Shown here in pieces: positions 1,501 to 21,594 of a DNA stretch of 64,000 nucleotides. Numbering within the stretch: the first letter of the stretch is position 1; the number at the start of each line of letters is the position of its first letter. The notes beneath the pieces were generated by a model, which had not been told where the DNA came from, made no database searches, and saw only the letters and a list, made by a program, of their open reading frames with translations. The DNA is from Diplonema papillatum (taxonomy: Eukaryota). The position numbers and the translations under genes were made by a program. The stretch lies in NCBI GenBank assembly GCA_030068145.1, contig JAPJBO010001038.1:1-64000 (forward strand), in the 5' to 3' direction.

Positions 1501-1552
1501 GAAGAAGTTCATGGCGCGATACCCTCATCGCATTGGGAGGGAGGGAGGGAAC

Positions 1553-2080: not shown

Positions 2081-3870
2081 TCAGTCTCTGGTGTCCAGGT
2101 CGGCGACCATGTTCTCGCCCGGAACCAGATGGGTGAGCACGTCCGCATCGCGCAGGCGCTCCTGCATCTCAACGATGAGGCGGTTTTCCGCTGGGTGCGG
2201 GGACGCAAGCTTTCGGTGGCGGCTCTCGGCCGTGCTGTTGTCGTGGAAGACATCCAGCGTCACCCACCCAGTCGTGACGTGTCGAGCCAGCAGGACGCCA
2301 AGAATCGCCGTCACCAGCTCGCGCCGCCGAATCGGCGTCGGCGGAGCCAGCCTCGCCAGCCGATCCTTCCATCTCCAGCTCTCGCGAGCGAGGACGGTCC
2401 GTCGCGTCGGATCCAGGACGACCACCCCACCTCCCTGGTCGGATGCGTCCGTCCAGACGTGCACTCGCCGCGCTGGGCGCCTGACTCTGCGGGGGGAAGC
2501 GTCCCCCAGCCAGCGATCACCAGCTTCCAGCTCCGCGAGCAGCTCCTGCGGGAGCTCCACGAGCGTGTCCCAGTCGCGGTAGGTGAGGCACCTGCCACTC
2601 ACCAGTCGGCTCGCACGCAGCAGCCCGGGATACGCCGCCGCCGGGGACCTCATGACGTACAGTGCCCAGCGCAGGCACCCGATACGCTGTGCCAGGGCCC
2701 GGAAGGACGTCACGCGTTGCGGCTTGTTCGCGCGGCAGACTGCTGCCCATTCCCGCGGGATCGCGATCGTCTTTGTAGCTAGGTCCAGATCCAGACCGTT
2801 GAAGGTACCGACTTGCGAGGGGCCTTGCGCCTTGTCCTCCCGGATCTGGATCCTGGTGTCGGCAAGCACGGCCCTCAGGCTCCGCTCGTCCCGGACGACG
2901 TCGGACCTTGTCCAGCCCCCGTAGGCTATGTCGTCGTAGATCGCCAGACTGCGGCTTCCGATGCCGGCCAGTCGGCGGACCCCCAGGGTCGTCAGCTGGG
3001 CGATCGCCGGCGCGCGCGCAATGCCCGGGACGGCTATCCGGAAGACGTAGTACGCGTTGGCCGCCCTAAACCCCAGGTAGTCCGCCAGCGCGTCGGACAC
3101 CGGAAGCTGGTAGAAGTAGCCCAGCAGGTCTAGGGTCGCGAACCAAGCGTGGTCCAGGACGAAGCCCTCCACATCCCTGAGCGACGGGGTGATGGGGGAC
3201 AGCGGTTGGGAGGTGCGGCTGTCAAAGGGCCTGCCATCGATCAGCAGACGGGTCTCTTCCTTCCCCTTTTTCGGGATTTTGAACACCTTCAGAGTGATCC
3301 GCGGCCTCTTTTCGACTCTCCTAACGACGCCACTCTGCAGCATCACCGCCAGGTCGGCCTCAGTGATGTCCGAGCTCGGTGGAGCGTGGTGCCTCTCGTG
3401 CGAGAGGAGCATGGGCTCTCGCGTCAGCTGGCGCAGGACGCGAATCTCGTCCTCCCACAGGCCTCGCTCGACCTTCCCGTAGTCGGCCTTTGTGACCGGC
3501 ATGGTGTCGATGGGCCCGCGGGACGTTCTGTACACCGGGCTCGGTGCCTTCGTGTACGTCCTCGATGCCAGTTCCGATAGCGCCTCTTCCTGAGCCCGAA
3601 CCCCTTCGACGTGCGTGCTCACGTCCCCGCGCAGCAGCCAGTCTTCCAAGGTCACCGCCCTGTCGAAGTCGGCCTCGCTCTGCTCGCCCATGTCGCCCCG
3701 TAACCGGCTTTCCCCCCATGCGAGCAGGCGGTCCAGATACCCGGCTGCCCCGGGATGGCGGCTGTTTGCCCAGTCCCGCAGGGGATGCGAGCTCTTCAGG
3801 TCCTGTGCGTACTCGGGGCAGAACGTGCTCGTCCTGGCCGCACCCTTCACCTTGAGCACGCCATCAGGTC
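2081..3870 (-). CDS. DIRS ORF3: reverse transcriptase (YDDI motif) plus RNase H (TDAS motif). The 5' end overlaps ORF2 by frameshift.
   Basis: In the 932-aa ORF, residues ~341 onward contain the RT fingers (LKVFKIPKKGKEETRLLIDGRPFD), the catalytic SLAIYDDIAYGG, and RNase H VWTDASDQGGGVVV. The first ~340 aa are a GC-rich spurious extension overlapping ORF2 and ORF1. Confidence 0.7.
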
Positions 3871-4713
3871 GCCGCTCACCGGCGTGTGGAGCAGCAGCGA
3901 CGCGCGAGCCGTCCTCACGCTGTCCGGGGTCAGGCAGCCCCAGAGATAACGCTTCAACGTGTCCTTGGACTGGTGACGGGCCATGAGCAGGAGGTCCTCC
4001 CAGCCCGCCCCGCTTCTGGCCAGGTGCTGGAGCGCCCCTCTCTTCCAGCTGTGCTCTGCACAAACCGGGAACAGCTTCCTCGCTTCCCGCAACAGCTTCC
4101 TCGTCGTGGCCTCGGTGAAGCGAGCCCCCCGCTGCACCCACCTGCTTACTCGCAGCGCCACGCCCAGGGGGACCCGGTAAGTCACCTCTGACTCCCTCAT
4201 ACGAAGGCTCGCCTCCTTCGTGGTCCACCACGAAACTCGGAGCAGACCCGGCCCCACGATGACCACGTCTGTCGGGGCCAGGGCCCGCAGGTCCGCCATC
4301 CGCAGCGCTCCCGCCCACGCCAGGCAGGCAGCCACCGTCACCTGCTCGTCGCCGCCCCTGACCAGCCCCTCGACGAGGGTCCGTTGCTGCTCCAGCGTGA
4401 TCGGGGGGGCATGCGCCGGCACTTCCCTGCGCTCGAGCCTGGCTTTGAGGATGGCCTTCTTCATGGCCGCCAGATCCCCCGACGGCACCCCGAGCTTCGC
4501 CCCCAGCACCTCGACGTACTTGCCGACGGAGGCCGTGCGCATCTCGCCGGTCCTCGGCCTGCCTCTCTGCCCCGGCACCCTCGCGACGTACGCTTCCAAC
4601 TGCTCCTGTGTCATGCCCTTGCCGAGCATGGCGGTCGCGAACGCCTTGATTCTCAGCGCGGGGGGAGCCGCCTGCAACCCCGCCACGGCTGTGAACCGCG
4701 TCAGCGACGCCAC
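3847..4713 (-). CDS. DIRS ORF2: tyrosine recombinase (phage-integrase-like).
   Basis: 288-aa ORF. The C-terminal region (...ARHQSKDTLKRYL...) is consistent with the R...H..R...Y catalytic tetrad of tyrosine recombinases. Position between gag and RT matches VIPER-type DIRS elements. Confidence 0.55.
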   Translation of the reverse strand: MASLTRFTAVAGLQAAPPALRIKAFATAMLGKGMTQEQLEAYVARVPGQRGRPRTGEMRTASVGKYVEVLGAKLGVPSGDLAAMKKAILKARLERREVPAHAPPITLEQQRTLVEGLVRGGDEQVTVAACLAWAGALRMADLRALAPTDVVIVGPGLLRVSWWTTKEASLRMRESEVTYRVPLGVALRVSRWVQRGARFTEATTRKLLREARKLFPVCAEHSWKRGALQHLARSGAGWEDLLLMARHQSKDTLKRYLWGCLTPDSVRTARASLLLHTPVSGDLMACSR

Positions 4714-4815
4714 GATCGACGCCCGCTGCGCCGTCGTCTTCTTCGAGGTCGCGCCGCCCTCGAAAACCGCGACCCGCCTCTCCCACGCGGCAAACCCCCC
4801 TCTCTGGGAGGGGAG

Positions 4816-5778
4816 TCACCCGTTTTTTGTCCTGCGGGAGACGGGCCCGTGCGAGAAACGGCAGTCCACCCTTGTGCATCTGCCTGCTTTGAAATTGCGG
4901 CAGGCCGGCGCCTGACGCGGAGGGACCCCCCGAGCGCGGGGCGGAACCGACTTGGGCGCCGCCTTAAACTGCGCCGTGAACCGGCGCCGGGCCTGCCGCA
5001 CTCTCTCGGGCAGAAGTTCCACCCTCAGCACGTCGCGCATCACTAGCGCTGCGCTGGGGTCGCGGGTCTCGTACTCCGCGTTCTGCTCCTCGTAGGAGTG
5101 GAAGAGCCCCCCCAGGCGGAGGATCCACATTCGTTTCGGGGGACCGGATTCCCCGCGGCGCAGGCGGACGAGGTCACGGACCCGTTCCGTGACATCGTCC
5201 CGCCTGTCCTGCAGCTGTTGGTTCCCTTTGAACCTGTACAGCCTTCGGACTGCGTCCTCAAACCCCCGCATGTTTGCCGCCGTCGGCTGCATTGTTCTCC
5301 ACCGCTCCGGGTCGAGGAACGCGAAGTCGTCATCGTCGTCATCGTCGCCGACGTCCTGCCCCGCGACTGCCGCGCCATCCAGCAGCGCGAGCACCTCGCG
5401 CTCGTCTTCGAGGCTGCCCAGCTCCCGCTGCAGCGTCGGGCCCAGGCCCGCCCAGAACCCTGGGTCCTGCTCGTCAAAGGCGAGAAAGATTTCTTCCGCC
5501 CTCGCCCTCGGCAGGCCGGGCATGAGCTCGGCCGGCATCAGTGGTACCCCCCCCTCTCCCGGTAGCTCCTCTCCGCCTCTTGGCCTCTTGGCCTCCTTCT
5601 CCGCCTCGTCCTGCTCACGTGCCCTCTTCTGGGCAGCGCCGATCTCCCTCTCGGCGGCTTCAACTTCGGCCTCACGCCGGGCCAGGCCTGCCTCGAGATC
5701 GAGAAGGCGCTTCTCCAGGAGAGCCAGCCCCTCCGCGTCTCTCTGCAGGGCGTTCTGCTGTTGCTGCTTGGGGGGCAT
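4816..5778 (-). CDS. DIRS ORF1: gag-like protein with coiled-coil/acidic region and C-terminal CCCH zinc knuckle (CRNFKAGRCTRVDCRFSH).
   Basis: 320-aa ORF with a poly-D tract and a C-x5-C-x4-C-x3-H motif near the C-terminus. Sits at the 5' end of the element. Confidence 0.55.
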   Translation of the reverse strand: MPPKQQQQNALQRDAEGLALLEKRLLDLEAGLARREAEVEAAEREIGAAQKRAREQDEAEKEAKRPRGGEELPGEGGVPLMPAELMPGLPRARAEEIFLAFDEQDPGFWAGLGPTLQRELGSLEDEREVLALLDGAAVAGQDVGDDDDDDDFAFLDPERWRTMQPTAANMRGFEDAVRRLYRFKGNQQLQDRRDDVTERVRDLVRLRRGESGPPKRMWILRLGGLFHSYEEQNAEYETRDPSAALVMRDVLRVELLPERVRQARRRFTAQFKAAPKSVPPRARGVPPRQAPACRNFKAGRCTRVDCRFSHGPVSRRTKNG

Positions 5779-6024
5779 CGCAACTTGGGGAAACTTGGGG
5801 TAACTTTTTTAAGCCCGGCGGAGGTCAACTGACCGGAGCTACCGGGGAGAGTGTGCTTACGTTGTGTGGTAACCTGATACGTTCGTGTGGTATGCGTCGA
5901 TTGTCTAATGAGCTTGAAGCCCCGCATGGGCGCTTTGTTCCGTGCTGTGGGCGCCGCCCGATGCACGCGGTGATTCGTTTGCGACAATAAAACCTGAGGG
6001 AAAAAGACTGCGTGTTTATCCCTC

Positions 6025-6402
6025 TCAAGAAAAATCTGCATACTGGAACTTCGGCGGGACCGTTGGAATCAGCGCTTCCTGTTTCCGGAAGTAGAAGAGG
6101 TTGTGGCGGCCCGGGTTGACTCCCAACGCGGCGTGGAGCATTTCGAGCTCGGTGACCGACTTGCCGGGGGGGCACTCGCCCAGCCAGTCGAAGCAGTGGC
6201 CTGCATTTCTGCGCCTGCTGTTGATCTCGTCGACCGAAACCTGTGTGCGATGGGCTGGTTGGCGACGCGGCCGGCTTTCAACTGTTTCCCGGTGCTGAGT
6301 GGGGGGGAGAGGAACGGTCTTTACTTTTGCATTTTCAGTGGCACATGACCAATTCATTTTGCATTCCCGCCATGTCTTTCGAGCATGTTGTATGTCATTC
6401 AT
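6025..6402 (-). CDS. P-loop NTPase fragment (Walker A 'GECPPGKS'). Candidate next block of the TEP1-like gene. Abuts or is truncated by the DIRS element.
   Basis: The ORF C-terminal part CFDWLGECPPGKSVTELEMLHAALG matches GxxxxGK[ST]. It is colinear and same-strand with the DUF4062 block at 7.8-8.0 kb. Confidence 0.3.
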   Translation of the reverse strand: MNDIQHARKTWRECKMNWSCATENAKVKTVPLPPTQHRETVESRPRRQPAHRTQVSVDEINSRRRNAGHCFDWLGECPPGKSVTELEMLHAALGVNPGRHNLFYFRKQEALIPTVPPKFQYADFS

Positions 6403-7166
6403 ACCATCATTCTAATCGGCATTCCTCTTCATGAATCGCGAACGATCCTTTCCGTGGAATGTTAACACCGCCACTTGAGGTTATCGAGGCGAGGTCATGC
6501 CAGAATAGTTAGCCATGTCACTAGAGCGGAGTGCTGCTCCGATTCAGAATGTGATTGACTCACTCTAGTGATTTGCAGTCTTGCCAAATGATTGCCAGTC
6601 TCTTTCATTCGCCAGCTATGATTTCATTCCATGCGTGGTTAACCATCATACTACTAACGCCCCTCGGTACAGTGCCTTCCGGGAGGAGAGGGGAAAACGG
6701 GGAACACGGAATAGTTGAGCCGCTTCGTTTTGTTTGTGCGTGCCGATTGATCGTGTTTCCACTTGTCCTGTGGATCATTTTCACGGTTGGGAATTCTGAT
6801 CAAGCACCAAAACACGCTGCCTACATCTTTTTCGCCTGCAGCACAGTACACTTTTAAAGTTTCAGCGGGACAAACTCCGCAGCCAGGCAGTGGCTGGTTT
6901 CTCATTCCCAAGTGTCGAAGCGGTCTGGACAGTTCCTTGGCACATGCTAGCATCGCCTGCTGTCGAACCCGAGTAACAACAGCAGAGTCAGCAACTGATC
7001 CATGATGTCCATGATAATGCTCCAACACTCAAAAGGAAAGGGGGTTTCACGTTCCAGGGTGTAAAACTCTCGAAGGGGCTTTTTCCCCGTGGTTGCACTC
7101 GTTCGTTTGTGCTTCGTTCTCAGTACTCACCTGCAGACGTGTTCCGGAAGTGTTCCCTTCAGTACG

Positions 7167-7535
7167 GTGCTACTAAGAAAACACTTTCCCTTCAGTACGG
7201 TGCTACTAAGAAAACACTTTCCCTTCAGTACGGTGCTACTAAGAAAACACTTTCCCTTCAGTACGGTGCTACTAAGAAAACACTTTCCCTTCAGTACGGT
7301 GCTACTAAGAAAACACTTTCCCTTCAGTACGGTGCTACTAAGAAAACACTTTCCCTTCAGTACGGTGCTACTAAGAAAACACTTTCCCTTCAGTACGGTG
7401 CTACTAAGAAAAACTTTCCCTTCAGTACGGTGCTACTAAGAAAACACTAGTACGGTGCTACTAAGAAAACACTTTCCCTTCAGTACGGTGCTACTAAGAA
7501 AACACTTTCCCTTCAGTACGGTGCTACTAAGAAAA
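7167..7535. repeat. 33-bp tandem repeat, ~11 copies (CCTTCAGTACGGTGCTACTAAGAAAACACTTTC).
   Basis: Perfect 33-bp periodicity seen in the sequence and in the 11-aa-periodic ORFs. Confidence 0.9.
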
Positions 7536-7718
7536 CACTCGACGTTGCTGCTTTGACTCCGAATGGAAGGGGAGATACAGAGGTAAATACGCAAACACAA
7601 TACACAATCTGATTTGTTCTTCGCTCACACCACCGTGTGTTGTTTTCTCACTCAGGACTTGACCTGTTCAGTTTGTGGGTCTTGTCGTGTAGGTAGACTC
7701 GCATGACCTCACGTCCGT

Positions 7719-8864
7719 TCAACACGTGGTTCGGTAGTTGCAGCACTTGGGATTCCTCTGGATCGCATTTCCCCTTCCAAGCTGGCATGTAAAAGAAATG
7801 GAAAAAGGGGTGAAAGGGAGAAGGGGAAGGAAATAGAATACGTTGTAAGAGGAGGGCGTGTGGCCATAACGGTCCCCCACGAGTCCTATGAAGAAAGGCT
7901 TGCAGCGTTCGACTTCGTTGAGGCACAGAGACGTCGATAGGCCATTGTCGGCGTCTTGGGACGTGATGCCCCACCGCAGGTCGATGTCAACCAGCCGGAT
8001 TTTGTACCCGCGCGCGGCACACCAGCGTCGCAGGGTGGGGAATACTTCGGTGGACAACAGGTGCCGCTCGGTTTGCATGTCGAGGAACGTCGACGAAATA
8101 AAGACGCGGATCGTGGCCCATCCCCCTGAAGCGCCGTCCGTGCTCGTGACGGCGAGGGACCCCATGTGCGACTGCATGTGCGACTGAGACCGCGCGGCCG
8201 TCTCGTTCTCTTCGTACTCTTCTTCCTCCTCCGCTTCTTCTTCATCGCTGGGGCCGACGCTGGGCTTCTCTTCCGTTTCCTCGCTCTCTTCGTCTTCCTC
8301 TTCTTCTTCGGCGTCGCCGGCGCATCCTTTTCCTCCGACCCTCGGCCCTGCCAGCATCTCGAAGTTGACCTTGTCCTTCTTCACGCGCTTCACCTCGTCT
8401 ATCCGTTCGACGTACTCCAACTGCGCAGCGCCCCGCTCCGCTACGAAGCGAAGGATCGAATCGGAGAACCCCGTAACGTACGCGTCGTTCGTCGCGTCCG
8501 ACGGCAGCTTGCAGCCGCCGCCGCCGGCGATGTCCACCGAGATGTAGAACAGATCGGGGTTGATCAGCTGCCGCATCTTCTTCACGTACGCCGACAGGCC
8601 CCCGTTGCGCAGCGGATTCTCGTCGGAGAAGTCCTGCCCGCTGTCGCCGACGGCGCTGTCGTCGATCACGATCAAGTTGTCGACCCACGTCTGTGTTGTT
8701 GGACTAAGTATGCTGGAGGACCCTTTTCCCCGGACGTAAAAGCTAACGTTGCAGGTGCAGCAAAGGATGACTATGTATTCGAGAAACAACAACAGGGTGC
8801 TGCCAGCGAGCCCCGATTCGACTGTCTGAGACACAAAACGTGCATTGAAAGCATCGAACCGCAT
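7719..8864 (-). CDS. TEP1/Ro60-like gene block: C-terminal vWA part of the TROVE module, an acidic linker, and a DUF4062-like domain.
   Basis: 'AYVKKMRQLINPDLFYISVDIAGGGG...GFSDSILRFV' resembles the Ro60/TEP1 vWA C-terminus. 'IRVFISSTFLDMQTERHLLSTEVFPTLRRWCAARGYKIRLVDIDLRWG' resembles DUF4062, which is found N-terminal to NACHT in TEP1/NWD proteins. The last ~45 aa of the ORF (KCCNYRTTC) run into a dispersed repeat and are probably not coding. Confidence 0.5.
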   Translation of the reverse strand: MRFDAFNARFVSQTVESGLAGSTLLLFLEYIVILCCTCNVSFYVRGKGSSSILSPTTQTWVDNLIVIDDSAVGDSGQDFSDENPLRNGGLSAYVKKMRQLINPDLFYISVDIAGGGGCKLPSDATNDAYVTGFSDSILRFVAERGAAQLEYVERIDEVKRVKKDKVNFEMLAGPRVGGKGCAGDAEEEEEDEESEETEEKPSVGPSDEEEAEEEEEYEENETAARSQSHMQSHMGSLAVTSTDGASGGWATIRVFISSTFLDMQTERHLLSTEVFPTLRRWCAARGYKIRLVDIDLRWGITSQDADNGLSTSLCLNEVERCKPFFIGLVGDRYGHTPSSYNVFYFLPLLPFTPFSISFTCQLGRGNAIQRNPKCCNYRTTC

Positions 8865-10039
8865 CGCGATGACTCGAGTTCTCTAACGGCCTCGGGTGAT
8901 GCTTGTCCTAGCCAGGGGGATACCCGCCGATATTCCTGCACCCCGGACCCCCACTCCGGATTGTGGGAGTGGTTTTGCGGTCGTTTGTGCGGTCGGCCTC
9001 ACTCCCTCAATGCGGGAGTGGCCACTCCCGCATTGACTTAGTATATGGCTGCTGAAGTCCGGGTGTCCTTAATGACTTCCTTATTTGGACCATCGTCGAA
9101 AGGGTTCCTATATGGTATCGTATTCTGGTTTGCATATCGTACCTGTGGCAGTACCAGTGCGTGTGCATGTGTCTGTCCTTGTTGCCCATTGCCGACTATG
9201 TGTTGGTGTCGTTCCTTCCCGATCTTGCGCCAGGGTAGAACTCGAAACAAATCGTTGACTGTGCAGGCCACGGATGACTATTTATAAAACAACGTGGAGC
9301 TTCTTTAACAAGTTAGCAAGCTGCCATGACTGCGCTGATCCGTATTTCTGGCGGGAGGCTAACGGATACAGCGATGCAAAGATGCAACGATGCAAAGAAC
9401 TTCGAAATACTCGACGTAGCTGCATTGTTAACTACTTAAGGACGGAGGGGGGCAGGGTTAAATTTGGGAAAAGGGCTCCACGTCGATGCGGTTCGACGTT
9501 ACCCTCGCCAGAGGGAGCCCCGCGTCCGCCCGCCTACCCGGAGCCACTCGACACCCTGGAAGTGAGGGCGTCGACGAGTAGGTCGAGCTGGACACGTTGT
9601 CCGAGGCTTCGTCGTACACCGCCAGCCCGCCCGCGATGCCCTGCAGCCGCCTCTGCAGCCCTGCAAGACGCGACGCATCCCGACCCACTCCGCCTACACG
9701 GCCACCGCGACCGGCCGGCTGCGGGCCCCCAACGGCAAGCACCCACGTCGGCGAGAGCGAACGGCGGCCGCACCCGTCCCCGCGGCGCTTTCCCCCGTCC
9801 ACCCTCGGTCGCTTCCTCACCCAGCGACCAAAGGCCTGCCGCTCGTCGTCCGGCTCGTCCGCCCGACTGCGGCCGTCCACCCGCACCACGCGCTCCACCG
9901 GACGGGTTGTGGGCCCTCCCGTCCATCTCTTCCACGCGCGCGTCCATGTCACCGCCATTCTAACCCTACCATTCGGAGTCCCGAGAGCAGTAAGGCGGTT
10001 AGTCACGCCTTAGCAGTCCCAGGGCCTCTCCCCTCCCAC

Positions 10040-10696
10040 CTATATGTGTCTCGCTGTCATCGCTACCGCGCTGACATTTCCGAGAGAGAGAGAGAGAAAG
10101 AGAGGGAGATGGAAGGACACCTCGTTGCTCAGGATGCCGTTCAGCACGTCGAACGGGAACTTGAGGTTCGCTGCCGCCTTGCCGGTGCTGCGCATTTGGA
10201 GGACGGTGTCGTTGGCGGCTTGGAGGTTGCGCAGGATGGTGCCGTCCTGCAGGTTGGCGATGGCCGCAGACCCGCCTTCGTCGGAGTCGTACAGGTAGAT
10301 GTCGCAGTCCTCGCAGCCGTACTTGAGCATGAGGGCCAGCAGGATGGACAGTTCGCGGAGGGTCCGCACGGAACCGATGCCTTTGGACGAGGCTGCGGTG
10401 ATGGGCGCGTTCAGCGCCTCCTTCGCGTTGCAGAGAACCAGCGTTTTGCCGTAGATGGGTTTAATGTTGTACGTCGTCGCGTGCCTCACCGCCGTGTCCA
10501 GCGCATCCGCGTACGATTCGATGACGTCCGGCGTCGGTATGTTCTTCGGCACGATCACCTTCTGCAAACGCCGCTGCTCCCCGTCGGCTGCGCCGGCTTT
10601 CCCCGCCTTCCCGGGTTTCCCGCCTTTTCCGGTCTTCGACCCCTTCTTCCCTTTGTCCTTGCCTTTGCCCTTGCCTTTGCCCTTCCCAGCGAACAT
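10040..10696 (-). CDS. Probable vWA-like N-terminal block of the same TROVE/TEP1-like gene, preceded by a K/G-rich linker.
   Basis: Weak Ro60-vWA-like pattern (KTLVLCNAKEAL...CDIYLYDSDEG...TILRNLQAANDTVLQMRSTG). Same strand and colinear between the TROVE-middle and vWA-C blocks. Confidence 0.3.
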   Translation of the reverse strand: MFAGKGKGKGKGKDKGKKGSKTGKGGKPGKAGKAGAADGEQRRLQKVIVPKNIPTPDVIESYADALDTAVRHATTYNIKPIYGKTLVLCNAKEALNAPITAASSKGIGSVRTLRELSILLALMLKYGCEDCDIYLYDSDEGGSAAIANLQDGTILRNLQAANDTVLQMRSTGKAAANLKFPFDVLNGILSNEVSFHLPLFLSLSLGNVSAVAMTARHI

Positions 10697-10997
10697 CGCC
10701 GGCGGCGCCTCCGGCTTCGGCGCGGCTCCCTTCCCAGCCTTGCCCAGGGTCTTGCCCCACAGGTCGGCCAGCGACTCGGCCGCCCGTCCCGCGCCCTTCG
10801 AGCCTTTGGCTTTCTTTTTCTCGGCTTCGAGCAGCCGCTGCTCCTCGACGTACTGCGTCGCCTGTGGAGGATAATATTATCATAATGTCACTCTTCTAAG
10901 AAGCCGTTTGTGCTTCCGACGATCCCGTATGGGCGTACAGATTGGTGTCTTTCGACGTTTTGTGCGTGTGAGGTGCAGCTTTGTGTGTGGTGTGACG

Positions 10998-13545
10998 GGA
11001 TTGGGGGGGAAAATGTTTCTTGGGTTTGAAGAGCGCGTGGTGCTTGCACCACTGAGGCCAGGTTATTTAACCGCGGATTTAGTGAAGGATTGTTCAGGAA
11101 ACGGTCGCGAGCGAAACCCGACCAGGTAACGACCATTTCACTGTCTTCTTTGTTTTGTGATGCGAACATCACGAGGTGCTGTCCGAAGACACCGCCCACG
11201 TGAGCACTGTTAAGCAGCGGTTGCCAGATACTCCCGTAGCACCTATTCACGGGTTTGCAGGGGTAAAAAGGAAGCCCGGGTTGGGGAGGGTGGTGGGTTT
11301 GGTGCGTAGTATTCTTCTTTTTTTGTTCTTTCTCGGTTCTGGTGGTGCTGCTCCTTCCTTCTCGTCCTGTGTTGGGTTACGACTTTTTTTGTTCTTTATC
11401 GGTTCTGAGCGTTTCCATATGCCTTTTCCTGCTTTGACATGCAGTCCCTTCCAAACTGTACCTCTCTTGGTGTTCGGGGGTTGGGCCGTATGGTAACGTC
11501 TCGGGAAACGAAGTGTTGTTGTTTGTGGCGTCACAAAAGCGACAAATTGCCAAAGCAACCGGGTGCCGAGCTTAAGCAAGGCGTTTGTCAATGGAGAACC
11601 AGTCCTGTGCCGTTTTAGGGCCGGCAGGTCTCAACGGGGGGAAAATGTTTCTTGGGTTTGAAGAGCGCGTGGTGCTTGCACCACTGAGGCCAGGTTATTT
11701 AACCGCGGATTTAGTGAAGGATTGTTCAGGAAACGGTCGCGAGCGAAACCCGACCAGGTAACGACCATTTCACTGTCTTCTTTGTTTTGTGATGCGAACA
11801 TCACGAGGTGCTGTCCGAAGACACCGCCCACGTGAGCACTGTTAAGCAGCGGTTGCCAGATACTCCCGTAGCACCTATTCACGGGTTTGCAGGGGTAAAA
11901 AGGAAGCCCGGGTTGGGGAGGGTGGTGGGTTTGGTGCGTAGTATTCTTCTTTTTTTGTTCTTTCTCGGTTCTGGTGGTGCTGCTCCTTCCTTCTCGTCCT
12001 GTGTTGGGTTACGACTTTTTTTGTTCTTTATCGGTTCTGAGCGTTTCCATATGCCTTTTCCTGCTTTGACATGCAGTCCCTTCCAAACTGTACCTCTCTT
12101 GGTGTTCGGGGGTTGGGCCGTATGGTAACGTCTCGGGAAACGAAGTGTTGTTGTTTGTGGCGTCACAAAAGCGACAAATTGCCAAAGCAACCGGGTGCCG
12201 AGCTTAAGCAAGGCGTTTGTCAATGGAGAACCAGTCCTGTGCCGTTTTAGGGCCGGCAGGTCTCAACGGGGGGAAAATGTTTCTTGGGTTTGAAGAGCGC
12301 GTGGTGCTTGCACCACTGAGGCCAGGTTATTTAACCGCGGATTTAGTGAAGGATTGTTCAGGAAACGGTCGCGAGCGAAACCCGACCAGGTAACGACCAT
12401 TTCACTGTCTTCTTTGTTTTGTGATGCGAACATCACGAGGTGCTGTCCGAAGACACCGCCCACGTGAGCACTGTTAAGCAGCGGTTGCCAGATACTCCCG
12501 TAGCACCTATTCACGGGTTTGCAGGGGTAAAAAGGAAGCCCGGGTTGGGGAGGGTGGTGGGTTTGGTGCGTAGTATTCTTCTTTTTTTGTTCTTTCTCGG
12601 TTCTGGTGGTGCTGCTCCTTCCTTCTCGTCCTGTGTTGGGTTACGACTTTTTTTGTTCTTTATCGGTTCTGAGCGTTTCCATATGCCTTTTCCTGCTTTG
12701 ACATGCAGTCCCTTCCAAACTGTACCTCTCTTGGTGTTCGGGGGTTGGGCCGTATGGTAACGTCTCGGGAAACGAAGTGTTGTTGTTTGTGGCGTCACAA
12801 AAGCGACAAATTGCCAAAGCAACCGGGTGCCGAGCTTAAGCAAGGCGTTTGTCAATGGAGAACCAGTCCTGTGCCGTTTTAGGGCCGGCAGGTCTCAACG
12901 GGGGGAAAATGTTTCTTGGGTTTGAAGAGCGCGTGGTGCTTGCACCACTGAGGCCAGGTTATTTAACCGCGGATTTAGTGAAGGATTGTTCAGGAAACGG
13001 TCGCGAGCGAAACCCGACCAGGTAACGACCATTTCACTGTCTTCTTTGTTTTGTGATGCGAACATCACGAGGTGCTGTCCGAAGACACCGCCCACGTGAG
13101 CACTGTTAAGCAGCGGTTGCCAGATACTCCCGTAGCACCTATTCACGGGTTTGCAGGGGTAAAAAGGAAGCCCGGGTTGGGGAGGGTGGTGGGTTTGGTG
13201 CGTAGTATTCTTCTTTTTTTGTTCTTTCTCGGTTCTGGTGGTGCTGCTCCTTCCTTCTCGTCCTGTGTTGGGTTACGACTTTTTTTGTTCTTTATCGGTT
13301 CTGAGCGTTTCCATATGCCTTTTCCTGCTTTGACATGCAGTCCCTTCCAAACTGTACCTCTCTTGGTGTTCGGGGGTTGGGCCGTATGGTAACGTCTCGG
13401 GAAACGAAGTGTTGTTGTTTGTGGCGTCACAAAAGCGACAAATTGCCAAAGCAACCGGGTGCCGAGCTTAAGCAAGGCGTTTGTCAATGGAGAACCAGTC
13501 CTGTGCCGTTTTAGGGCCGGCAGGTCTCAACGGGGGGGGGGGAGC
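10998..13545. repeat. 632-bp tandem repeat, 4 copies, ending in a poly-G tract.
   Basis: Identical ORF triplets recur every 632 bp (11631/12263/12895 and 11176/11808/12440/13072). The unit starts with gggggaaaatgtttcttgggtttgaag. Confidence 0.9.
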
Positions 13546-13699
13546 TTTACTGTATCGGGCTTGACTTTAACTCATGCTTCAGCCAGGTTGCCCACTCTGC
13601 CTTATCGCTAGGCTCCTGAAAGCGTACCCTTTCGCATACACACTGCATAACTGAAGAACCAGGAGTCGTCCAGGATTTGCCAATACGTCGCATCACGGC

Positions 13700-14580
13700 G
13701 CCCGTAGATTTGCGCCAGGTCTCCGGTTGACCATTGAAGAGGTGTATGGTGCAAGAGTTTCATGGACTCCTACGCTTGGAAAGGTCCCGTTACACATCTA
13801 TTCACAGCAGCAAAAACTGATCCTTTCTGCCGTACACGCGGGGGACCTCGTTGCCTCGGTTCCCGGTGCAGCTTCCGTTTCCGCGGTCGCGTGCCACTCT
13901 CTTTCTCTTTTCTAGAGTTATAGTTCGCTTGAGAATCCGGGATTTTAGAGTCTCCGGGTGACCTTGTCGAATGGGTTCTTTTAAAGCTAATACGTACTGG
14001 GTGGGTTTGGGGGGGCATGCATGACTTCTTTCGTGTACACTTTATTTGCTTGCTGACAAGTTAGGTTCGTATCAATTTGTGGTATAAGCTCCTGCCTTGT
14101 GACGTGTGCTGCGTAGTCCAGACGAAGCACACGTAAATCTGGGGTTGGCGGCGGGCGTAAGCGTTCGACTGAAAAGACTACATTCCTCGAAGGAATGCAC
14201 TTGGTTTTGGTCACGAACAGTCTCGGACATGGCTAGCCTTTACTCAAACTGAAGGTTTACACCTAAGAAACAACCCGCACCCACATAGCCCTTGCTTGCT
14301 CTACGAGAACCCATTTAACGAAGGCAAGTCATCCGGAGACCTAAAATCTCGGAATATCAAGCGAACTTAACTCTATGAAGGGAACAGTTTGCAGTGTTGT
14401 ATGCTCCCCCATGTAGCCTTCGTCGCAATAAGCACCGGGCGGCCCCTCCGAATGTTTCTTGTCGTATACGATCGAAGATAGATGGTTGATCCTCCACAAG
14501 GGACACATATTTAGAGTGCAAGTTCGCTTAGGGATCCGGGGTTTTGTAGTCTCCGGGTGAACATTGTCATAATAAGGTAT
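13700..14580. repeat. Cluster of short dispersed-repeat modules (...GAGTTAAAGTTCGCTTGA.ATTCCGGG.TTTTAG.GTCTCCGG.TGACC...) in both orientations.
   Basis: Related copies at 13915-13995 (+), 14215-14380 (-), 14505-14575 (+). Further copies at 19925-19990 (-) and 42960-43040 (+). Confidence 0.6.
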
Positions 14581-14924
14581 AGTATGTTAGTGTGCGTATC
14601 GGATCTGCTGTAGTGGCAGTACGTGTACTCGTGCGTGTATCTTTGTTGCGGAGAGAAGCCCTGGGACTGCTAAGGCAAGACGAACCACCTCACAGCTTTC
14701 AGGCCAAAGGAGGGGGGCGATGCCGACGACGTGGGCGCACGCAAGGCGCTCGCCACCATCGGGAAGGCGGGGCGGGGCCCACACTCTTTGGCTTGTATTG
14801 ATGCTCTCGGGAAAGGTCAGCGCGGTGCCGATGATCACGAGAACACGTAAGGTGGGTGGGAGAGGCACCTGTATGAACCACGTACTTGTCATGCGTATGA
14901 CACGTAAGAACGTGATACGAAAGG

Positions 14925-15200
14925 TGCTTGTAAAATACTCGAGGGACTGCCTTGTGCTCATTTCTACGGAGGCTAGTGGGGGAGAAAACAATACAACTAC
15001 TAGGTGGGCTCTTTTTAGAGTTAAAGTTTTTGTTGAACGCTTACGCCCGCCACTAAACCCAGATTTACCTGTGTTTCGTGTGGGCTACAGCACACTTACC
15101 TCCCAGATTTACCTGTGTTTTGTGTGGGCTACAGCATATTTACCTCCTTCGAGATTTTGCAACTGGCAGTCTCCTCAAGTATTTCCCTTAAGGAATTGCC
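14925..15200. repeat. Dispersed repeat family (~250 bp). Other copies at 26128-26340 and 59890-59970, with an inverted partial copy at 14125-14170.
   Basis: Long near-identical stretches (aatactcgagggactgccttgtgctcatttc...cgcttacgcccgccactaaacccagatttacctgtgtttcgtgtgggctacagcaca.ttacctcc...ctggcagtctcctcaagcatttcc). Confidence 0.7.
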
Positions 15201-15254
15201 TAGGAATTGGCTTGTGGAGGTGATTTTGCCTTGTTTTTTTGCATTCTGCAGCCA

Positions 15255-15773
15255 TTATTTCAGCCTAAACGAGCGTCCGACCACGTTTCCCGCCCTTTCG
15301 GAGCGTTTTATGGCACCTGAGTGGTAGGTTTCAAGTTTAGGGCTTCTGGCTTGCGTATACAAGAAAGGTAATACCTTGAGGATGTGCGCGCCCAGATCGA
15401 TGCGGATGGCTTCGTAGGCTGAGAAGAAGCGGTACGGGAAGAGCCGGCTTTTCGTGACCTGCTCCGGGTTGCGAAGGCGATCCTGCACCTTTTTGTGGTG
15501 CGCGGCGCTGATCCCGGACAGGATGAAGTTCCGGATGTTGCGGACCATCGCCATGAACGGCAGCGGCGGCGACATGTCGAGCAGCTTCTCCCACGTGTCG
15601 GCCGTATTGCCCTCCTTCGCCAGCATCACCTCCCACGTGTCCGGCACGTCCAACTTCATCCTCTTCCCCGCGCGTTCCCCGTCGAACTCATGCGTTGCAG
15701 CGAGTCCAGTCTTCTCAAACTCACCCTCGGTAGTCGGGTATCGCTGGCCTGTAATACACATGACGTGGTACAC
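15255..15773 (-). CDS. TROVE-domain middle block of the Ro60/TEP1-like gene.
   Basis: 'LLDMSPPLPFMAMVRNIRNFILSGI...RLFPYRFFSAYEAI' matches the conserved Ro60/TEP1 TROVE core (LLxxLPxxALLRNLGKM...HPFHILIALETY). The ORF track start is GTG. The flanks have acceptor-like TGTATTACAG|G and donor-like CTCAAG|GTATTA. Confidence 0.5.
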   Translation of the reverse strand: MYHVMCITGQRYPTTEGEFEKTGLAATHEFDGERAGKRMKLDVPDTWEVMLAKEGNTADTWEKLLDMSPPLPFMAMVRNIRNFILSGISAAHHKKVQDRLRNPEQVTKSRLFPYRFFSAYEAIRIDLGAHILKVLPFLYTQARSPKLETYHSGAIKRSERAGNVVGRSFRLK

Positions 15774-16213
15774 GGGCTTCTCTACGTGCAGAGATCGGAT
15801 CAGCCGCTTGATCGTGTAAACCCGGGCGGTCAGCGCGTCGTCTGAGTCGTCTCCACCTCGGAGCTGCCCTGTGTTGTCGGCAAGGGGTAAGGGAAGGTGT
15901 AAGCAGGCCTTACATTCAGCATGCTGAACGTACTGATTTCAGCACGTTAATTTTCTTAGTTTCTTTTTTGTACACATGCTGAATCAGTACGTGTACACGT
16001 GCTGGAATCAGTACGCTATCAGCACGTGCTATCTTTTCTGCAGATTCATCTGGGGAATCACAACCGCAGTAACGGCAGCTCCTGCTGTTGCTTACCACCG
16101 CGACACTGGAGGGTTGAGGCCGGAGAGGAGGCAGAGGCAAAGACATGCCACACTGGCAGGTGAGCTCCCTACGGCCACACTGGCAGGTGAGCTCGCTACG
16201 CGCGAGCTCCCTA

Positions 16214-16443
16214 CCATGCAGGGTCAAAACCTTGTGTCTTTTTGGAAATGGCCAAAAAAAAAAAATTCAGGAAAAAAATGGGTTTTTTGAATTTTAAAAG
16301 TTTGGAACAAACTCTGCAGTAATTTTTGAGGAAGTTGAGCAAAAAAAAAAATTTCCAAAAAAATTTTTAGGGCTCCATCGGCCCCGCGGGAGCGTTTTAA
16401 TAAGACACAAGGTTTTGACCCTGCATGCTACGTTCTATTTCTG
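16214..16443. mobile_element. MITE copy 1 (~225 bp): TIR CATGCAGGGTCAAAACCTTGTGTCTT, TA-flanked.
   Basis: Perfect ~26-bp terminal inverted repeats. AT-rich internal region with poly-A runs. Flanking TA on both sides. Confidence 0.8.
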
Positions 16444-17018
16444 TTTTTGCCTGACCCTACGTACTGATTATCAGTAGGTATTTAAAGAGCTGCGTAAGCC
16501 CTGGGTGTGAGGTGCAAGGGCGAAGCGTGGGTGCCGCGCGTTTTGGCTGCACGAGTGCAGAAAAAGTGGTCGAATGCTCGTTTAAGCTCGAAGAAAGGCC
16601 GCAGGATCCGAATTCAAGGAGAAATCACCCTCCGTAGTGTCATTCCCTAGAAACCCAAAAAAAAACAGCCACAAAACGAGCCCGACTAGCATCCAACCCT
16701 CCAGGGTACCCAAAAAACATCCGGGGAGTCCCCGAAAACTTGCTCTAGAACGGTGCGGGTTGAAGAAACGGCCAGAAAATGTCCCACCCCACGGGTAAGC
16801 TACGGCCGCAGCTTGCAACCCTGTCTCCTGTGCTGCCGCCGTCGCCAACGATCTAGCCGAATAAATGTACGTCAAAAATATTTTCGGAAAGAACTCCCAC
16901 ACGCCAAATTTTCTTCCGGTTTCCGCTTATTCTTCAAACACGGCAAGAATGAATGCTGGCGTTGGGGTAGAGTAGCCGCCGCTTTGTGCGGATGCTTCGT
17001 GAGTTCAGTGTTCAGTGT

Positions 17019-17435
17019 TCAGTGTTCAGGGTTCAGCTTTTCAAGTGTTGGGTGTTGTTGGTAGTCCGGACGCACGAAACGAGGCATACCACTGGCAGTA
17101 AAGTTTGGGTTGAACTGGTCGTCGAGCTCTTCGAGGGCGTCGGGGCTGCTGGCGACTTCCTGGCGCTTCCGCTTCTTGTCCTTCTGCTTCTTCCGCAGCA
17201 TTCCCTTTTCCTTGTCGTGCTTCGCGAGCTGGTACGCCGAGAAGTCAGGGAACTTGTCCACCAGCGCTTTCCGCAGTGAGGTCGGCAGCCCCTTCGTGGC
17301 AGCTTCCGCGTTTTTCCTGTGGGTGTTGGGATGGTGTCCAGAATCTACAGATCTCCACAACCGGATATCGACCCCGAGGATGGGCTCAGGAGGTGTGGGT
17401 ACCCGATATGGGGGTATGTGGGGCCGGTATACCAC
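17019..17435 (-). CDS. Hypothetical small basic protein (K/R-rich).
   Basis: 138-aa minus-strand ORF lying between MITE copies. No recognisable domain. Could be spurious. Confidence 0.2.
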   Translation of the reverse strand: MVYRPHIPPYRVPTPPEPILGVDIRLWRSVDSGHHPNTHRKNAEAATKGLPTSLRKALVDKFPDFSAYQLAKHDKEKGMLRKKQKDKKRKRQEVASSPDALEELDDQFNPNFTASGMPRFVRPDYQQHPTLEKLNPEH

Positions 17436-17445
17436 CAGTGTGTAT

Positions 17446-17580
17446 AATGCAGGGTCAAACCCTTGTGTCTTTTTGAAAATGGCAAAAAAAAAATTCCGGA
17501 AAAAAAATGGGTTTTTTGAATTTTAAAATTTTGGAACAAACTCTGCAGTATTTTTTGAGGAAGTTGAGCAAAAAATTTTA
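17446..17580. mobile_element. MITE copy 2 (left half only, 3'-truncated).
   Basis: Left TIR and internal sequence match copy 1. No right TIR. Confidence 0.6.
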
Positions 17581-17994
17581 TTTCCCTTCACTGTGTTTGC
17601 GACGCAGCGGTCGAAGCGTTCGAATGGTCAGAGAAAAAATAGCAAGAGGTAAGTTCTTGGGATTTTGTGTAGGGCGCAAGGCGAGCGCCGGGACCCGTGG
17701 ATTCACACAGGCCACCTTGCTCCAGGGAGGGGCACGGGCTGCCTAAATTTTCACGAACTGTCCAGTTCAGATCCGCTTTGGAGAGGACGCGCCATATAAC
17801 ACGCAGCGACGACGGGTACTCATTTTGCGTGGCGCCCTCTTCCGTGTGCAATCACGCGGAAGGAAACATCAGACTTCAAAAAATGCTTGTGACCTGCGGG
17901 TCAAGAAAAAAGACGTCGCAAACCACAGGAAAAGGGAAAAAGAGGTGTGTACGGGTGGTTACCCGTTTGTGGCAGGATAATAAAAACCTTCCGG

Positions 17995-18116
17995 AAAAAG
18001 TCTTCGTGTTTTTCCTCTCGAAAAAAAATTCCGAAAAAAAAAAATTGGGGTCCATCGGCCCCGCGGGAGCGTTTTAAAAAGACACAAGGTTCTGACCCTG
18101 CATGGTATAGCACACC
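17995..18116. mobile_element. MITE copy 3 (right half only).
   Basis: Internal sequence (...ggggtccatcggccccgcgggagcgttttaaaaagacacaaggttctgaccctgcatgg) with the right TIR. Confidence 0.6.
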
Positions 18117-18263
18117 CCGTATACACCACCACACCACGTAGGTATCCGATTCATCGAGGGAATCCTTGAGGCACCTAAACGTACAGGGTACTTGGGTTGG
18201 TTTCTTTGTGCCGAAGTAGAATTCCTGTACACACCCATCATACGGTACGGTGTAGTGTATATA

Positions 18264-18489
18264 CCATGCAGGGTCAAAACCTTGTGTCTTTTTGAAAATG
18301 GCAAAAAAAAAAAAAAAAAATCCGGAAAAAAAATTGGGTTTTTTGAATTTTAAAATTTTGGAACAAACTCTGAACCTAATTTTTGATGACGTTGAGCAAA
18401 TTTTTTTTTTTTCCAAAAAATTTTGGGGTCCATCGGCCCCGCGGGGGAGCGTTTTAAAAAGACACAAGGTTTTGACCCTGCATGATACG
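18264..18489. mobile_element. MITE copy 4 (full length).
   Basis: Both TIRs present, TA-flanked. Confidence 0.8.
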
Positions 18490-18705
18490 TACTGCACAGC
18501 GAGTGCATACTGTGTGTATAGGTGGTCCCATTATGGTCCTCAGGACCTCTGATGCCTGGAACCGCCTATGTGGCCGGTGCGGCCCATGAAACCAGTCAAT
18601 TGACGAAAGTAGAGCCAAGACATCCACTGATGAGTGCAATTGATGTCACCCTCGATCAGCCGCAGTTGAGTTGAGGGGAACAGCTGGTTTGCCTCACCTG
18701 CCCCT

Positions 18706-19533
18706 TCAATGCTCGTGATTCTCGCTTTCTTTCGCGAGTGTGTAGGGATCCTCGGTTTCCAATCTGTTTGAAAGTCGTTTCCTCCTTCCATTCGGAATCG
18801 AAATTCTCGGTGATACCCTGCTGCAACGTTGAGTACTGAAAAGAAATGCGCAGTCTTGTGAAGAAAACTGCCCCCCAGGTTCGAAAGATCGAGGACCCCG
18901 GGTGCTGATCGGGGTGCCGATCGATAGCAAGATGAGCGGCCTACGGGGGGGGCCAGCTGCACACCTTCTGACAGTCAGCCAGAGTTCCGCAAACTGAGCA
19001 ACCTGAACCCAGTCGGTCGGCAAGACGATGATGCGGGGGATGTAGGCGCGGAGGTATGGGGCGCACGCGGGGGTGACGGCAGCGAAGGCCGCGAGATAGT
19101 TGCTCGTGGCCCGGATGTTCAAATCGGCGCGGACGTAAAGCGCGAGCTTCAGCAGGAACTCCGGAGAAGTCTTCGCGACCTCGGCCGCCAACCGGTTGAT
19201 GCCGGCGATCTGGCCCGTCGTCACCGTCCCTTCGTCGTACCGGGACTCTCGGATCATCATCGCGCACACCGACGTCAGCAAGCGGTGCTTCGCCTCTCGG
19301 ATGCGCTGCCCTTCTGGCGCCATCGTTGAAAGGCTCCCGTTGGCTCTGCCTTTTTTTTTTTTTTTGGTTCGTTCTTTGCCTGTGGGGGTGTTTGAGATTT
19401 GCAAATTACAGTGATTCTGAGGATATTCGCGCGTTAGATTGATGATGTGCAGAGCGAGGCTTGGCAGGAATTCCGGCGACGGTTTTTCCTTCGTGGTTCC
19501 GGGACTCCCGTGACCAACATCGCACAACTGCAC
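18706..19533 (-). CDS. TROVE-domain N-terminal block of the Ro60/TEP1-like gene. The conserved part is ~18950-19320; the rest of the ORF looks non-coding.
   Basis: 'EFLLKLALYVRADLNIRATSNYLAAFAA...LPTDWVQVAQFAELW' matches the Ro60/TEP1 TROVE N-terminus (FLxRLAIYSRxELNIR...). A 230-bp shared upstream module and motif lie just 5' of it. The MITE cluster lies just 3'. Confidence 0.5.
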   Translation of the reverse strand: MQLCDVGHGSPGTTKEKPSPEFLPSLALHIINLTREYPQNHCNLQISNTPTGKERTKKKKKGRANGSLSTMAPEGQRIREAKHRLLTSVCAMMIRESRYDEGTVTTGQIAGINRLAAEVAKTSPEFLLKLALYVRADLNIRATSNYLAAFAAVTPACAPYLRAYIPRIIVLPTDWVQVAQFAELWLTVRRCAAGPPRRPLILLSIGTPISTRGPRSFEPGGQFSSQDCAFLFSTQRCSRVSPRISIPNGRRKRLSNRLETEDPYTLAKESENHEH

Positions 19534-20245: not shown

Positions 20246-20499
20246 TTTTTGTACTAGGTCAGGACGACGTCGCATTTGTGCAACCTCCTGCGAGCGTTTA
20301 ACCACGTCAGGCCAGCGGGAGCAAGGACGTTGTCCGAAGACGCCGACACTTACCTTTCGCTGACGATGCCGCGGGTCACCTCCTCAACTCATTCCTATCC
20401 TGGTCGATCCGAGCAAAACTGAGGCAGCCGGCATGCCGTCTCGCAACAGAAGCTTGGACGATCCGAATAGGTCCAGACGTCTCAACCATAAACCCCTGT

Positions 20500-20875
20500 G
20501 AAGGAGCAATGATTAAGATTTGAACGCATCTCCAACTCTTACCACTCATCGGTTTCAGGGACTTTTAACCCTCTTTTCAAAGTTATTTGCATCTTTCCAT
20601 CACTGTACTTGTTCGCTATCGGCCTCCGGGAGATATTTAGCCTTAGCAGAGGGATACCTGCCGATTAGCTCAGCATTCCCAAACTGAGCGACTACCAGTA
20701 GTGTAGTTAACCAACATGGCTCGTCGAGGAAATACGGGACTCTCACCCTCCCATTCCAGGAGACTTACCTCGACGCCAGTTGTGTTCCCAAGCAGCTTGC
20801 GCCACATTCCGGATATCCGTAGAACACCTGTTCAGGCTTGGGTTTTGCCCTGTTCACTCGCCGTTACTAGGAGCA
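20500..20875 (-). pseudogene. Degenerate LSU rRNA 5'-end fragment (first ~380 nt), in opposite orientation to the SSU fragment.
   Basis: Minus strand reads TAGTAACGGCGAGTGAACAGGG...GTTTGGGAATGC...GGCTAAATA...CCGATAGCGAACAAGTACAGTGATGGAAAGATGCAAATAACTTTGAAAAGAGGGTTAAAAGTCCCTGAAACCG. This matches the LSU 5' domain with many substitutions. Confidence 0.5.
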
Positions 20876-21594
20876 TGGGAGCTTGAGGCTGCATGTACAG
20901 CGACACTCTTGCGTGGAGGGAAATGTACCCGACCTATCATAGAAGCCGGTAAGAAGCCAGCGCAAACCCGGCAGGAGCCGCTGATCTTCGCCGTTTCTGC
21001 CGCCGCGACGTTTTTCCACGAGCCCGACAGGACGAGAAGAGTGAGGAGGAAGGGCAGAGCAATATGCAAGGCGCCGGCCACTTGTTGTTCTCGCGGTGCT
21101 TGTCTTCTTTTTTCTTTCTGCTTTCGTGCCTTTTTATTATGAAAAAAAAGGTTCCGGGGGTATCGACTGAGGAGGATGGCAAAACAAGGTTGGACGACGC
21201 GTCCGTGAATTTGCCGAGGGCAGGCGGTCAGTGTTGCACATGCTTGCACGACGTCCTTCGGTCCTCTTCGCTAATCGATCACTCTCGACACTGAGCTGCC
21301 AACATGAGCTCGGTAGAGGACACGGTACGAATAGAATCGGGATCGAGCGTTCGGGATCTGAACAGCGACGAGAGGATCACATACGCTTGGGGACAGATCT
21401 GCTGCGCTTGAAGTATCTGTGGGCTTGGCTTTGGCATGGCTGACGGTGACTTTGGCTTTGCTGGCTTGGGGCTTGACCTGCGTGTGGCGACTGAGCGTAC
21501 ACCAGCAGCATGTTTTTTGCAAGAACTCGTAGACACGGGATGCGATGAGCAGGAAGACAAAGCATTCCCGACAACGCCTGTCAGCATGTTTTCG

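Follow-up and report, generated by a model that had tools for sequence, protein, structure and literature searches.

The question raised by this locus is whether the scattered pieces of a TEP1-like gene in the genome of the marine protist Diplonema papillatum are the exons of one gene or the remains of a broken one. The pieces lie on the minus strand of a 64,000-nucleotide stretch of DNA (positions 1 to 64,000 of contig JAPJBO010001038.1, assembly GCA_030068145.1), which is called the window here. TEP1, the telomerase protein component 1 or vault-associated protein, is the homologue of Tetrahymena p80; it is built in the order TROVE-vWA-DUF4062-NACHT-WD40 and binds vault and telomerase RNA. 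The initial annotation of the locus offered two readings, a multi-exon gene with kilobase-scale, transposon-loaded introns, or an old gene shattered by successive insertions and truncated by a DIRS-like retroelement. Our results favoured the multi-exon gene, on the grounds of the open frame, the full-length TROVE match, the structural model of the vWA-like domain, the GC content at third codon positions (GC3) of the exons, and the placement of the repeats. Positions 6044-19323 of the minus strand are likely to represent the 5' part of the D. papillatum TEP1 orthologue, predicted to comprise six exons with 955 codons and GT-AG introns filled with transposons.

Six blocks of a TEP1-type protein

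The homologues P0001, P0003, and P0004, together with the relative at locus L001 that includes P0001, were aligned to the window by tblastn. Six colinear blocks on the minus strand matched the N-terminal ~870 residues of the TEP1 homologues in N-to-C order (Table 1), with E-values from 1e-5 to 1e-65, which is far past chance. Such a same-strand, colinear series had been recognized from the start, and every block then listed was recovered, but the exon at 17316-17090 had been overlooked. Profile searches also assigned the expected domains to the blocks. In the unspliced open reading frames (ORFs), Pfam TROVE positions 7-154 were found in 18706-19533 and positions 237-355 in 15255-15773, and DUF4062 was found in 7719-8864. 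The concatenated blocks, used as a protein query, retrieved TEP1/p80-type proteins, with P0001 as the top match at 54% identity.

For the joining of the blocks, GT donors and AG acceptors around each block pair were enumerated, and the frame-compatible joins free of stop codons were kept and scored against the L001 relative. The blocks joined at GT-AG sites made up 2867 nt, or 955 codons, with no stop codon. The spliced product gave a single TROVE match (PF05731, profile positions 14-442 of 442, 273 bits, E 5e-81), whereas the unspliced ORFs gave fragments only. DUF4062 (PF13271) was matched with 43 bits against a cutoff of 24.7, and a solved TEP1 fragment, PDB 11gz_A, matched residues 797-952 across the junction of exons 5 and 6 (E 3e-24).

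The vWA-like domain was approached through an AlphaFold model of 276 residues encoded across the junction of exons 4 and 5 (mean pLDDT 67, pTM 0.68). The best Foldseek matches of this model were Deinococcus Rsr, human and Xenopus Ro60, and the vWA domains of RGLG and von Willebrand factor, with a probability of 1.0 and E-values of ~1e-5. Both exons contribute sequence to the model, and the vWA-like domain therefore seems to depend on exon 4 as well as exon 5. Taken by itself, Pfam DUF5920 scored too low (19-22 bits, with the cutoff at 27), and a profile search of PDB sequences gave no match for the vWA region. The DxSxS site of some homologues (DVSGSM), which is of the metal-ion-dependent adhesion site (MIDAS) type, read CNAKEAL at residues ~500-510 of the exon 4 product and CNVKDSL in the nearest relative; judged from these residues, the metal-ion site was probably lost in this lineage.

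The predicted protein resembled TEP1 in the N-terminal order of TROVE, vWA-like (DUF5920), and DUF4062 domains, in its 28-54% identity to proteins named TEP1 or p80-like, and in the match to 11gz_A. It differed from TEP1 in that the first 955 residues only are visible, in a long Lys/Gly-rich insert after the TROVE core, and in the lack of a MIDAS-type DxSxS. With Ro60/Rsr it shared the TROVE domain and the best structural matches of the vWA model, but Ro60 proteins are about 500-540 residues long and have no DUF4062, whereas the present frame has DUF4062 downstream of its vWA-like domain and has not ended by residue 955. Solved TROVE proteins matched marginally (E 6e-5), and TEP1-type proteins matched at E 1e-88 to 1e-148.

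The motif in exon 6 had been read as a Walker-A P-loop at 6.2-6.03 kb, and the alignment led to a different assignment. The candidate GECPPGKS aligned with a motif of the DUF4062 region, P-x-G-[KR]-S-x-T-E-x-E, and not with NACHT; exon 6 GECPPGKSVTELE aligned with YPSGRSVTEMEV of 11gz_A and, in the closest homologue, with RCPPGKSLTHLE. By eye, the NACHT P-loop of the relative is likely to be VSGVDGVGKT, which lay ~185 residues further on. The exon 6 block matched residues 776-810 of P0003, in which NACHT starts at ~944.

Binding of vault and/or telomerase RNA and association with vault particles are known for the TEP1 of mammals and T. brucei, where the TROVE-vWA module binds vault RNA, a small structured RNA (PMC12547018). 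We infer that the D. papillatum product would bind a vault-type RNA in the same way as in trypanosomes and mammals, and by analogy the DUF4062-NACHT-WD40 part presumably acts as an NTPase and scaffold. Rfam found neither a vault RNA nor a Y RNA at the gathering threshold in the whole window or at E<=1 in positions 1-24000, and ARAGORN found no tRNA, so that the lead of nearby Pol III tRNA-like elements and vault-RNA or Y-RNA candidates was not borne out.

Predicted splice junctions and repeat-filled introns

All five complete introns had GT...AG termini with compatible, frame-restoring phases, and a sixth donor followed exon 6. GTRT was present in every donor (in order in Table 1, where a slash marks the exon boundary), which fits the 5' splice-site consensus of Diplonemidae, G/GTATG (PMC12621601). 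The sequence (A/C)CACAG was found at all five acceptors, and the AG at 19380-19381, which shares the CACAG motif with these internal acceptors, is a possible acceptor of the spliced leader. Among the splice-like edges pointed out earlier, the donors CTCAAG/GTATTA (15375/15374) and AAC/GTATTC (7842/7841) were used in the best spliced model, but the acceptor was not. This candidate, TGTATTACAG/G at 15758-15748, lies within the conserved coding sequence VYHVMCITGQ.

Junctions 4 (exons 4 and 5) and 5 (exons 5 and 6) were the top-scoring joins by alignment alone. Across the former, the residues of the homologues abutted, with 577 followed by 579 in P0004 and 530 followed by 533 in P0003. The multiple alignment was continuous at junctions 1, 4, and 5, and at junction 3 it was unbroken as far as the join, where a Lys/Gly-rich linker specific to the lineage starts. 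The N-terminus encoded by exon 1 aligned from residue 1 with the start of the homologue, exon 2 showed 79% identity to residues 128-160 of P0001 by tblastn, and the acceptor of exon 4 came directly after in-frame stop codons.

The repeats named in the initial annotation, namely the 632-bp x4 array, the 33-bp array, the cluster of miniature inverted-repeat transposable elements (MITEs), and the dispersed repeats, were all found by repeat analysis. In a self-comparison of the window, no exon base overlapped a repeat; the repeats sat within the introns, and unique sequence separated them from the exon edges. The coding sequence had a GC3 of 0.83, similar to the 0.73-0.88 of the three other genes of the window, whereas the introns had 48-59% GC. 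A Pfam scan of ten intron ORFs found no transposase and no other meaningful domain. The absence of exon-repeat overlap, the contrast in GC3, and the lack of Pfam domains in the introns speak against insertions into the coding sequence as the cause of the gene's scattered layout.

That the locus is an old pseudogene, left by successive insertions into a gene that had once been continuous and with GT and AG at its block edges by coincidence, is hardly credible. Such a history would suit the repeat-filled spacers and the closest relative, whose frame runs uninterrupted across all five junction positions. It is opposed by 955 codons without a stop or frameshift, by a GC3 kept high beside spacers of ~50% GC, by the compatible phases and extended consensus at GT...AG in 5/5 junctions, and by block edges that adjoin unique sequence and not repeat termini.

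The copies of the 632-bp unit were 100% identical over 1.9 kb, which indicates amplification in the very recent past, gene conversion, or an effect of the assembly. The MITE had a unit of ~219 bp with 32-nt terminal inverted repeats that were 94% complementary. Two of its copies, at 16213-16429 and 18261-18488, gave weak, sub-threshold Rfam matches to the plant microRNA precursors MIR2606 and MIR2646; these matches are consistent with the long hairpins that terminal inverted repeats would form, and they are not evidence for microRNA genes. With regard to an introner-type origin of the introns, no shared terminal sequence beyond the splice consensus was noticed at the five intron ends, which were compared by eye with no alignment made. 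On the plus strand, a 291-residue ORF at 8166-9041 runs antisense to exon 5 and reaches into intron 4, and it is probably a by-product of the GC-rich third positions on the sense strand rather than a gene.

If the locus is a multi-exon TEP1 gene, its primary transcript would receive the spliced leader by trans-splicing at an AG that precedes the ATG. The U2-type spliceosome would then cis-splice the five complete GT-AG introns of 1.2-4.5 kb, and a sixth that leaves the window. MITEs and tandem arrays would have gathered passively in the introns, as would a young DIRS-like retroelement in intron 6, and the exons would have stayed unique and open, with a codon bias like that of expressed genes. 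Exons for NACHT and WD40, which would make the gene complete, would be expected beyond window position 1.

Table 1. Predicted exons and introns of the TEP1-like gene, with tblastn blocks, repeats, and parts of the DIRS-like element
Feature	Position	Strand	tblastn block	Content and evidence
Possible spliced-leader (or 3') acceptor AG	19380-19381	minus		context ACACCCCCACAG/GCAAAG, 56 nt upstream of ATG
Exon 1, coding part	18965-19323	minus	block 1, 19302-18985	ATG 19323-19321; TROVE N-terminus; donor AAG/GTGTGC; tblastn, Pfam, model
Intron 1	17317-18964	minus		1648 nt, 48% GC; MITE copies 18262-18487 (full), 18021-18109 and 17437-17586 (partial)
Exon 2	17090-17316	minus	block 2, 17312-17196	encodes KGLPTSLRKALVDKFPDFSAYQLAKH (TROVE); acceptor CACCCACAG/G; donor GTG/GTATGC; tblastn, model
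Intron 2	15869-17089	minus		1221 nt, 49% GC; MITE copy 16212-16430 (full)
Exon 3	15375-15868	minus	block 3, 15851-15378	TROVE core; acceptor CGACAACACAG/G after pyrimidine-rich tract; donor CTCAAG/GTATTA; tblastn E 3e-65, 65% identity; Pfam TROVE 237-355
Intron 3	10862-15374	minus		4513 nt, 51% GC; 632-bp x4.0 tandem array 11004-13537; short dispersed repeats 13896-15103
Exon 4	10121-10861	minus	block 4, 10573-10118	Lys/Gly-rich linker, TROVE end, first half of vWA-like domain; acceptor TCCTCCACAG/G; donor AACGAG/GTGTCC; tblastn E 3e-54
Intron 4	8691-10120	minus		1430 nt, 59% GC; ORFs without Pfam domain
Exon 5	7842-8690	minus	block 5, 8693-7839	second half of vWA-like domain, acidic linker, DUF4062; acceptor CCAACAACACAG/A; donor TACAAC/GTATTC; tblastn E 2e-64
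Intron 5	6241-7841	minus		1601 nt, 48% GC; 33-bp x12 array 7153-7539; dispersed repeats 6718-6840 and 7533-7757
Exon 6	6044-6240	minus	block 6, 6258-6046	acceptor CGCACACAG/G; donor TTCCA/GTATGC; tblastn E 7e-16
Intron 6, incomplete, leaves window	1-6043	minus		15 nt unique, DIRS-like element, 370 nt flank
MITE, further full copy	54793-55011			
DIRS-like retroelement	371-6028	minus		same orientation as TEP1 gene
Split direct repeats A1, B1, A2, B2	6028-5799, 2044-1777, 1776-1547, 638-371			A copies 100% identical, B copies 99%
95-bp tandem array	828-1480			6.9 copies (Tandem Repeats Finder)
gag-like ORF	4816-5778	minus		320 residues; identical to D. papillatum proteins from 10 contigs
Reverse transcriptase (RT) polyprotein ORF	2081-4879	minus		RVT_1 E 0.027 (below curated cutoff)
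Tyrosine-recombinase-like ORF, overlapping RT ORF	3847-4713	minus		PHROG phrog_216 integrase E 2.7e-4; Phage_integrase E 0.26 (below curated cutoffs)

The DIRS-like element and the end of the homology

Retroelements of the DIRS order (Ngaro/PAT-like) have split direct repeats and carry a tyrosine recombinase instead of a DDE integrase. The element downstream of exon 6 shared with them the A1 ... B1-A2 ... B2 termini, an RT-like polyprotein, and an overlapping tyrosine-recombinase-like ORF, and its RVT_1 and integrase matches, all below the curated cutoffs, lay at the expected profile positions. It differed from them in the 95-bp tandem array between A2 and B2 and in the weakness of the enzyme-domain matches. 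As first described, the chain of TEP1 blocks ended at this element: the homology stopped at 6046, 18 nt before the terminal repeat starts at 6028. The element began 15 nt after the GTATGC donor of exon 6, and tblastn detected no TEP1 match in the 370 nt beyond it. Because of this donor 15 nt upstream and the absence of TEP1 homology past the element, it most likely sits in intron 6, and the proposed truncation of the gene by the element is the less likely reading.

Several points weigh against an intact TEP1 gene at this locus. The NACHT/WD40 part, which is two-thirds of the gene, was not found in the window by tblastn, and the 2252-residue relative used as a query gave no window match beyond the residue equivalent to 874. 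Searches with either half of TEP1 in a database of 5.8 billion proteins brought up no matching D. papillatum protein; apart from the relative itself, the full C-terminal query retrieved only distant WD40 proteins. The exon 5 ORF had no exact match in the protein collection, and the spliced product was likewise not found there. The published annotation, which was guided by RNA-seq, apparently has no model at the TEP1 locus, and a vault study of 2025 gave only a 'very partial' TEP1 for D. papillatum (PMC12547018, Table S3). Junctions 1 and 2, both within variable linkers, could each shift by tens of nt. The donor of exon 1 is uncertain by about 20 nt, with an alternative donor present, and the 3' end of exon 2 falls in a low-complexity linker, which makes the donor of exon 2 and the next acceptor the least certain junction. 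The DIRS-like element is young (terminal repeats 99-100% identical), and at 15 nt from the exon 6 donor it could disturb expression. Read-through of that donor gives ...KFQYADFS, which is faintly like the [FWY]xxxF of the homologues with one residue too many, and judged from this peptide an insertion into the exon itself keeps a small probability.

Part of this evidence would also be expected if the gene had been disabled recently, with its exons intact but interrupted by a DIRS-like insertion at or near the exon 6 donor, or with its C-terminal part lost, which would leave a recent pseudogene or truncated transcripts. The end of the homology 18 nt before a young element with open ORFs fits such an event, as do the NACHT/WD40 sequence missing from the window, the lack of an annotated D. 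papillatum TEP1 other than the 'very partial' one of the literature, and the faint resemblance of the read-through peptide QYADFS to the homologues. However, the GTATGC donor stands exactly at the end of the homology and matches both the Diplonemidae consensus and the other donors of the gene, the spacing of [FWY]xxxF is wrong in the read-through, and the 370 nt past the element hold no detectable TEP1 match. Transposable elements in introns are, in addition, normal for D. papillatum (PMC10161547). We therefore regard a recent disabling as unlikely.

The closest relative, neighbouring genes, and the probable missed annotation

The homologue P0001 is encoded on a 608-kb contig in ENA (locus L001, ERZ25333188), on which a 1687-residue ORF, P0045, starts 14 nt after it. 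In P0045, DUF4062 and NACHT were accompanied by WD40 propellers, one of which was the second propeller specific to TEP1 (PF25047, Beta-prop_TEP1_2nd, 95 bits against a cutoff of 89). The break between the two ORFs was a predicted 79-nt intron with an A-rich 3' end (L001 11577-11655, GACG/GTATGC...CTGCAG/G), the removal of which gave ...EDYADG-NPLRTGG..., aligning with ...QDFSDENPLRNGG of the window. Since its removal joins both ORFs, the relative is predicted to encode a TEP1 of about 2230 residues. Short introns with an A-rich tract of this kind are reported for Diplonema japonicum. The L001 contig had ~32-41% GC outside one stretch of ~50%.

This relative bears on whether the D. papillatum gene encodes a naturally short TROVE-vWA-DUF4062 protein that lacks NACHT and WD40 and terminates behind exon 6, for instance where translation reads through to the TGA at 6027-6025. 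Read-through past exon 6 does stop after six more codons, and some database homologues are just 900-1100 residues long. However, those homologues come from short metagenome contigs with prokaryote-style gene calls and are probably truncated, the closest relative goes on into NACHT and the WD40 propellers, including the TEP1-specific one, and the stop codon would come partly from the transposon. A short protein of this type is accordingly very improbable.

With the multi-exon TEP1 gene as the preferred reading, the relative also raises the question of intron history. Because it reads through all five junction positions of the window and its one 79-nt intron sits elsewhere, all TEP1 introns here might be gains or expansions of the D. 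papillatum lineage, an idea that we hold as doubtful. If it were true, and if mobile DNA had created or enlarged the introns, the locus would capture a recent episode of intron gain. Diplonemids are the sister group of the almost intron-free kinetoplastids.

The gene had been thought notable in a genome whose other genes are intronless, a premise that did not hold. In D. papillatum, 41% of the genes have introns, almost all of them GT-AG, with a mean of 1.6 per gene (Valach et al. 2023, PMC10161547). The median intron length is <1 kb and the longest validated intron is 72 kb, and long introns 'often' hold complete or partial transposable elements (PMC10161547). The introns of the TEP1 gene resembled these long introns in their kilobase-scale length, GT-AG termini, transposable elements and tandem repeats, and their setting in a gene-sparse, repeat-rich region; they differed in number, at least six here against the mean of 1.6, and in nothing qualitative.

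The premise was wrong for at least one neighbour too, the cystathionine beta-lyase-like (CBL) gene at 55301-57558 on the minus strand, since the removal of an 854-nt intron completes its Pfam domain. Its main ORF (57558-56131) ended prematurely. The predicted intron (56155-55302) has the donor AAGAG/GTATCC and the acceptor CCTATCAG/A, and the next exon encodes ...TLPPDLIRLSVGIED..., reading LIRLSVGIED. Splicing extended the Cys_Met_Meta_PP match from 14-350 to 14-381 of 381, and the spliced frame stayed open for at least about 130 more codons. This gene served as a control for the intron model of TEP1.

Among the other features of the window, a 653-residue ORF at 33601-35562 on the minus strand corresponded exactly to the D. 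papillatum protein KAJ9443974.1 (DIPPA_17694), which is recorded on a 75.6-kb contig. From its translation, a 1314-residue ORF at 44899-48843 on the minus strand appears to be a two-half ABC transporter in fused form, in which the second nucleotide-binding domain bears a long insert. ABCD proteins are normally half-transporters, and the fused form would be unusual if this ORF is of the ABCD type, as it was labelled earlier. Three scattered fragments of eukaryotic large subunit (LSU) rRNA, at 20492-20901, 31579-31706, and 60237-60379 on the minus strand, lay outside any rDNA unit and matched positions 24-664, 2196-2323, and 2623-2763 of RF02543 in Rfam with 105-148 bits.

The locus is most likely a missed gene annotation and not a novel phenomenon, long transposon-bearing introns having been published for the D. 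papillatum genome. It is ordinary in terms of genome biology, and it is useful for annotation and for diplonemid vault biology without being surprising. The practical lesson is that genes with long, transposon-filled introns escape automated annotation. For the likely D. papillatum TEP1 orthologue, the predicted sequence of the first 955 residues and a predicted exon-intron structure are now available. This result supports the presence of a vault/TEP1 ribonucleoprotein in diplonemids as well as in kinetoplastids, and it provides a concrete target for the question of whether spliced-leader trans-splicing outside trypanosomes involves a vault-type RNA.

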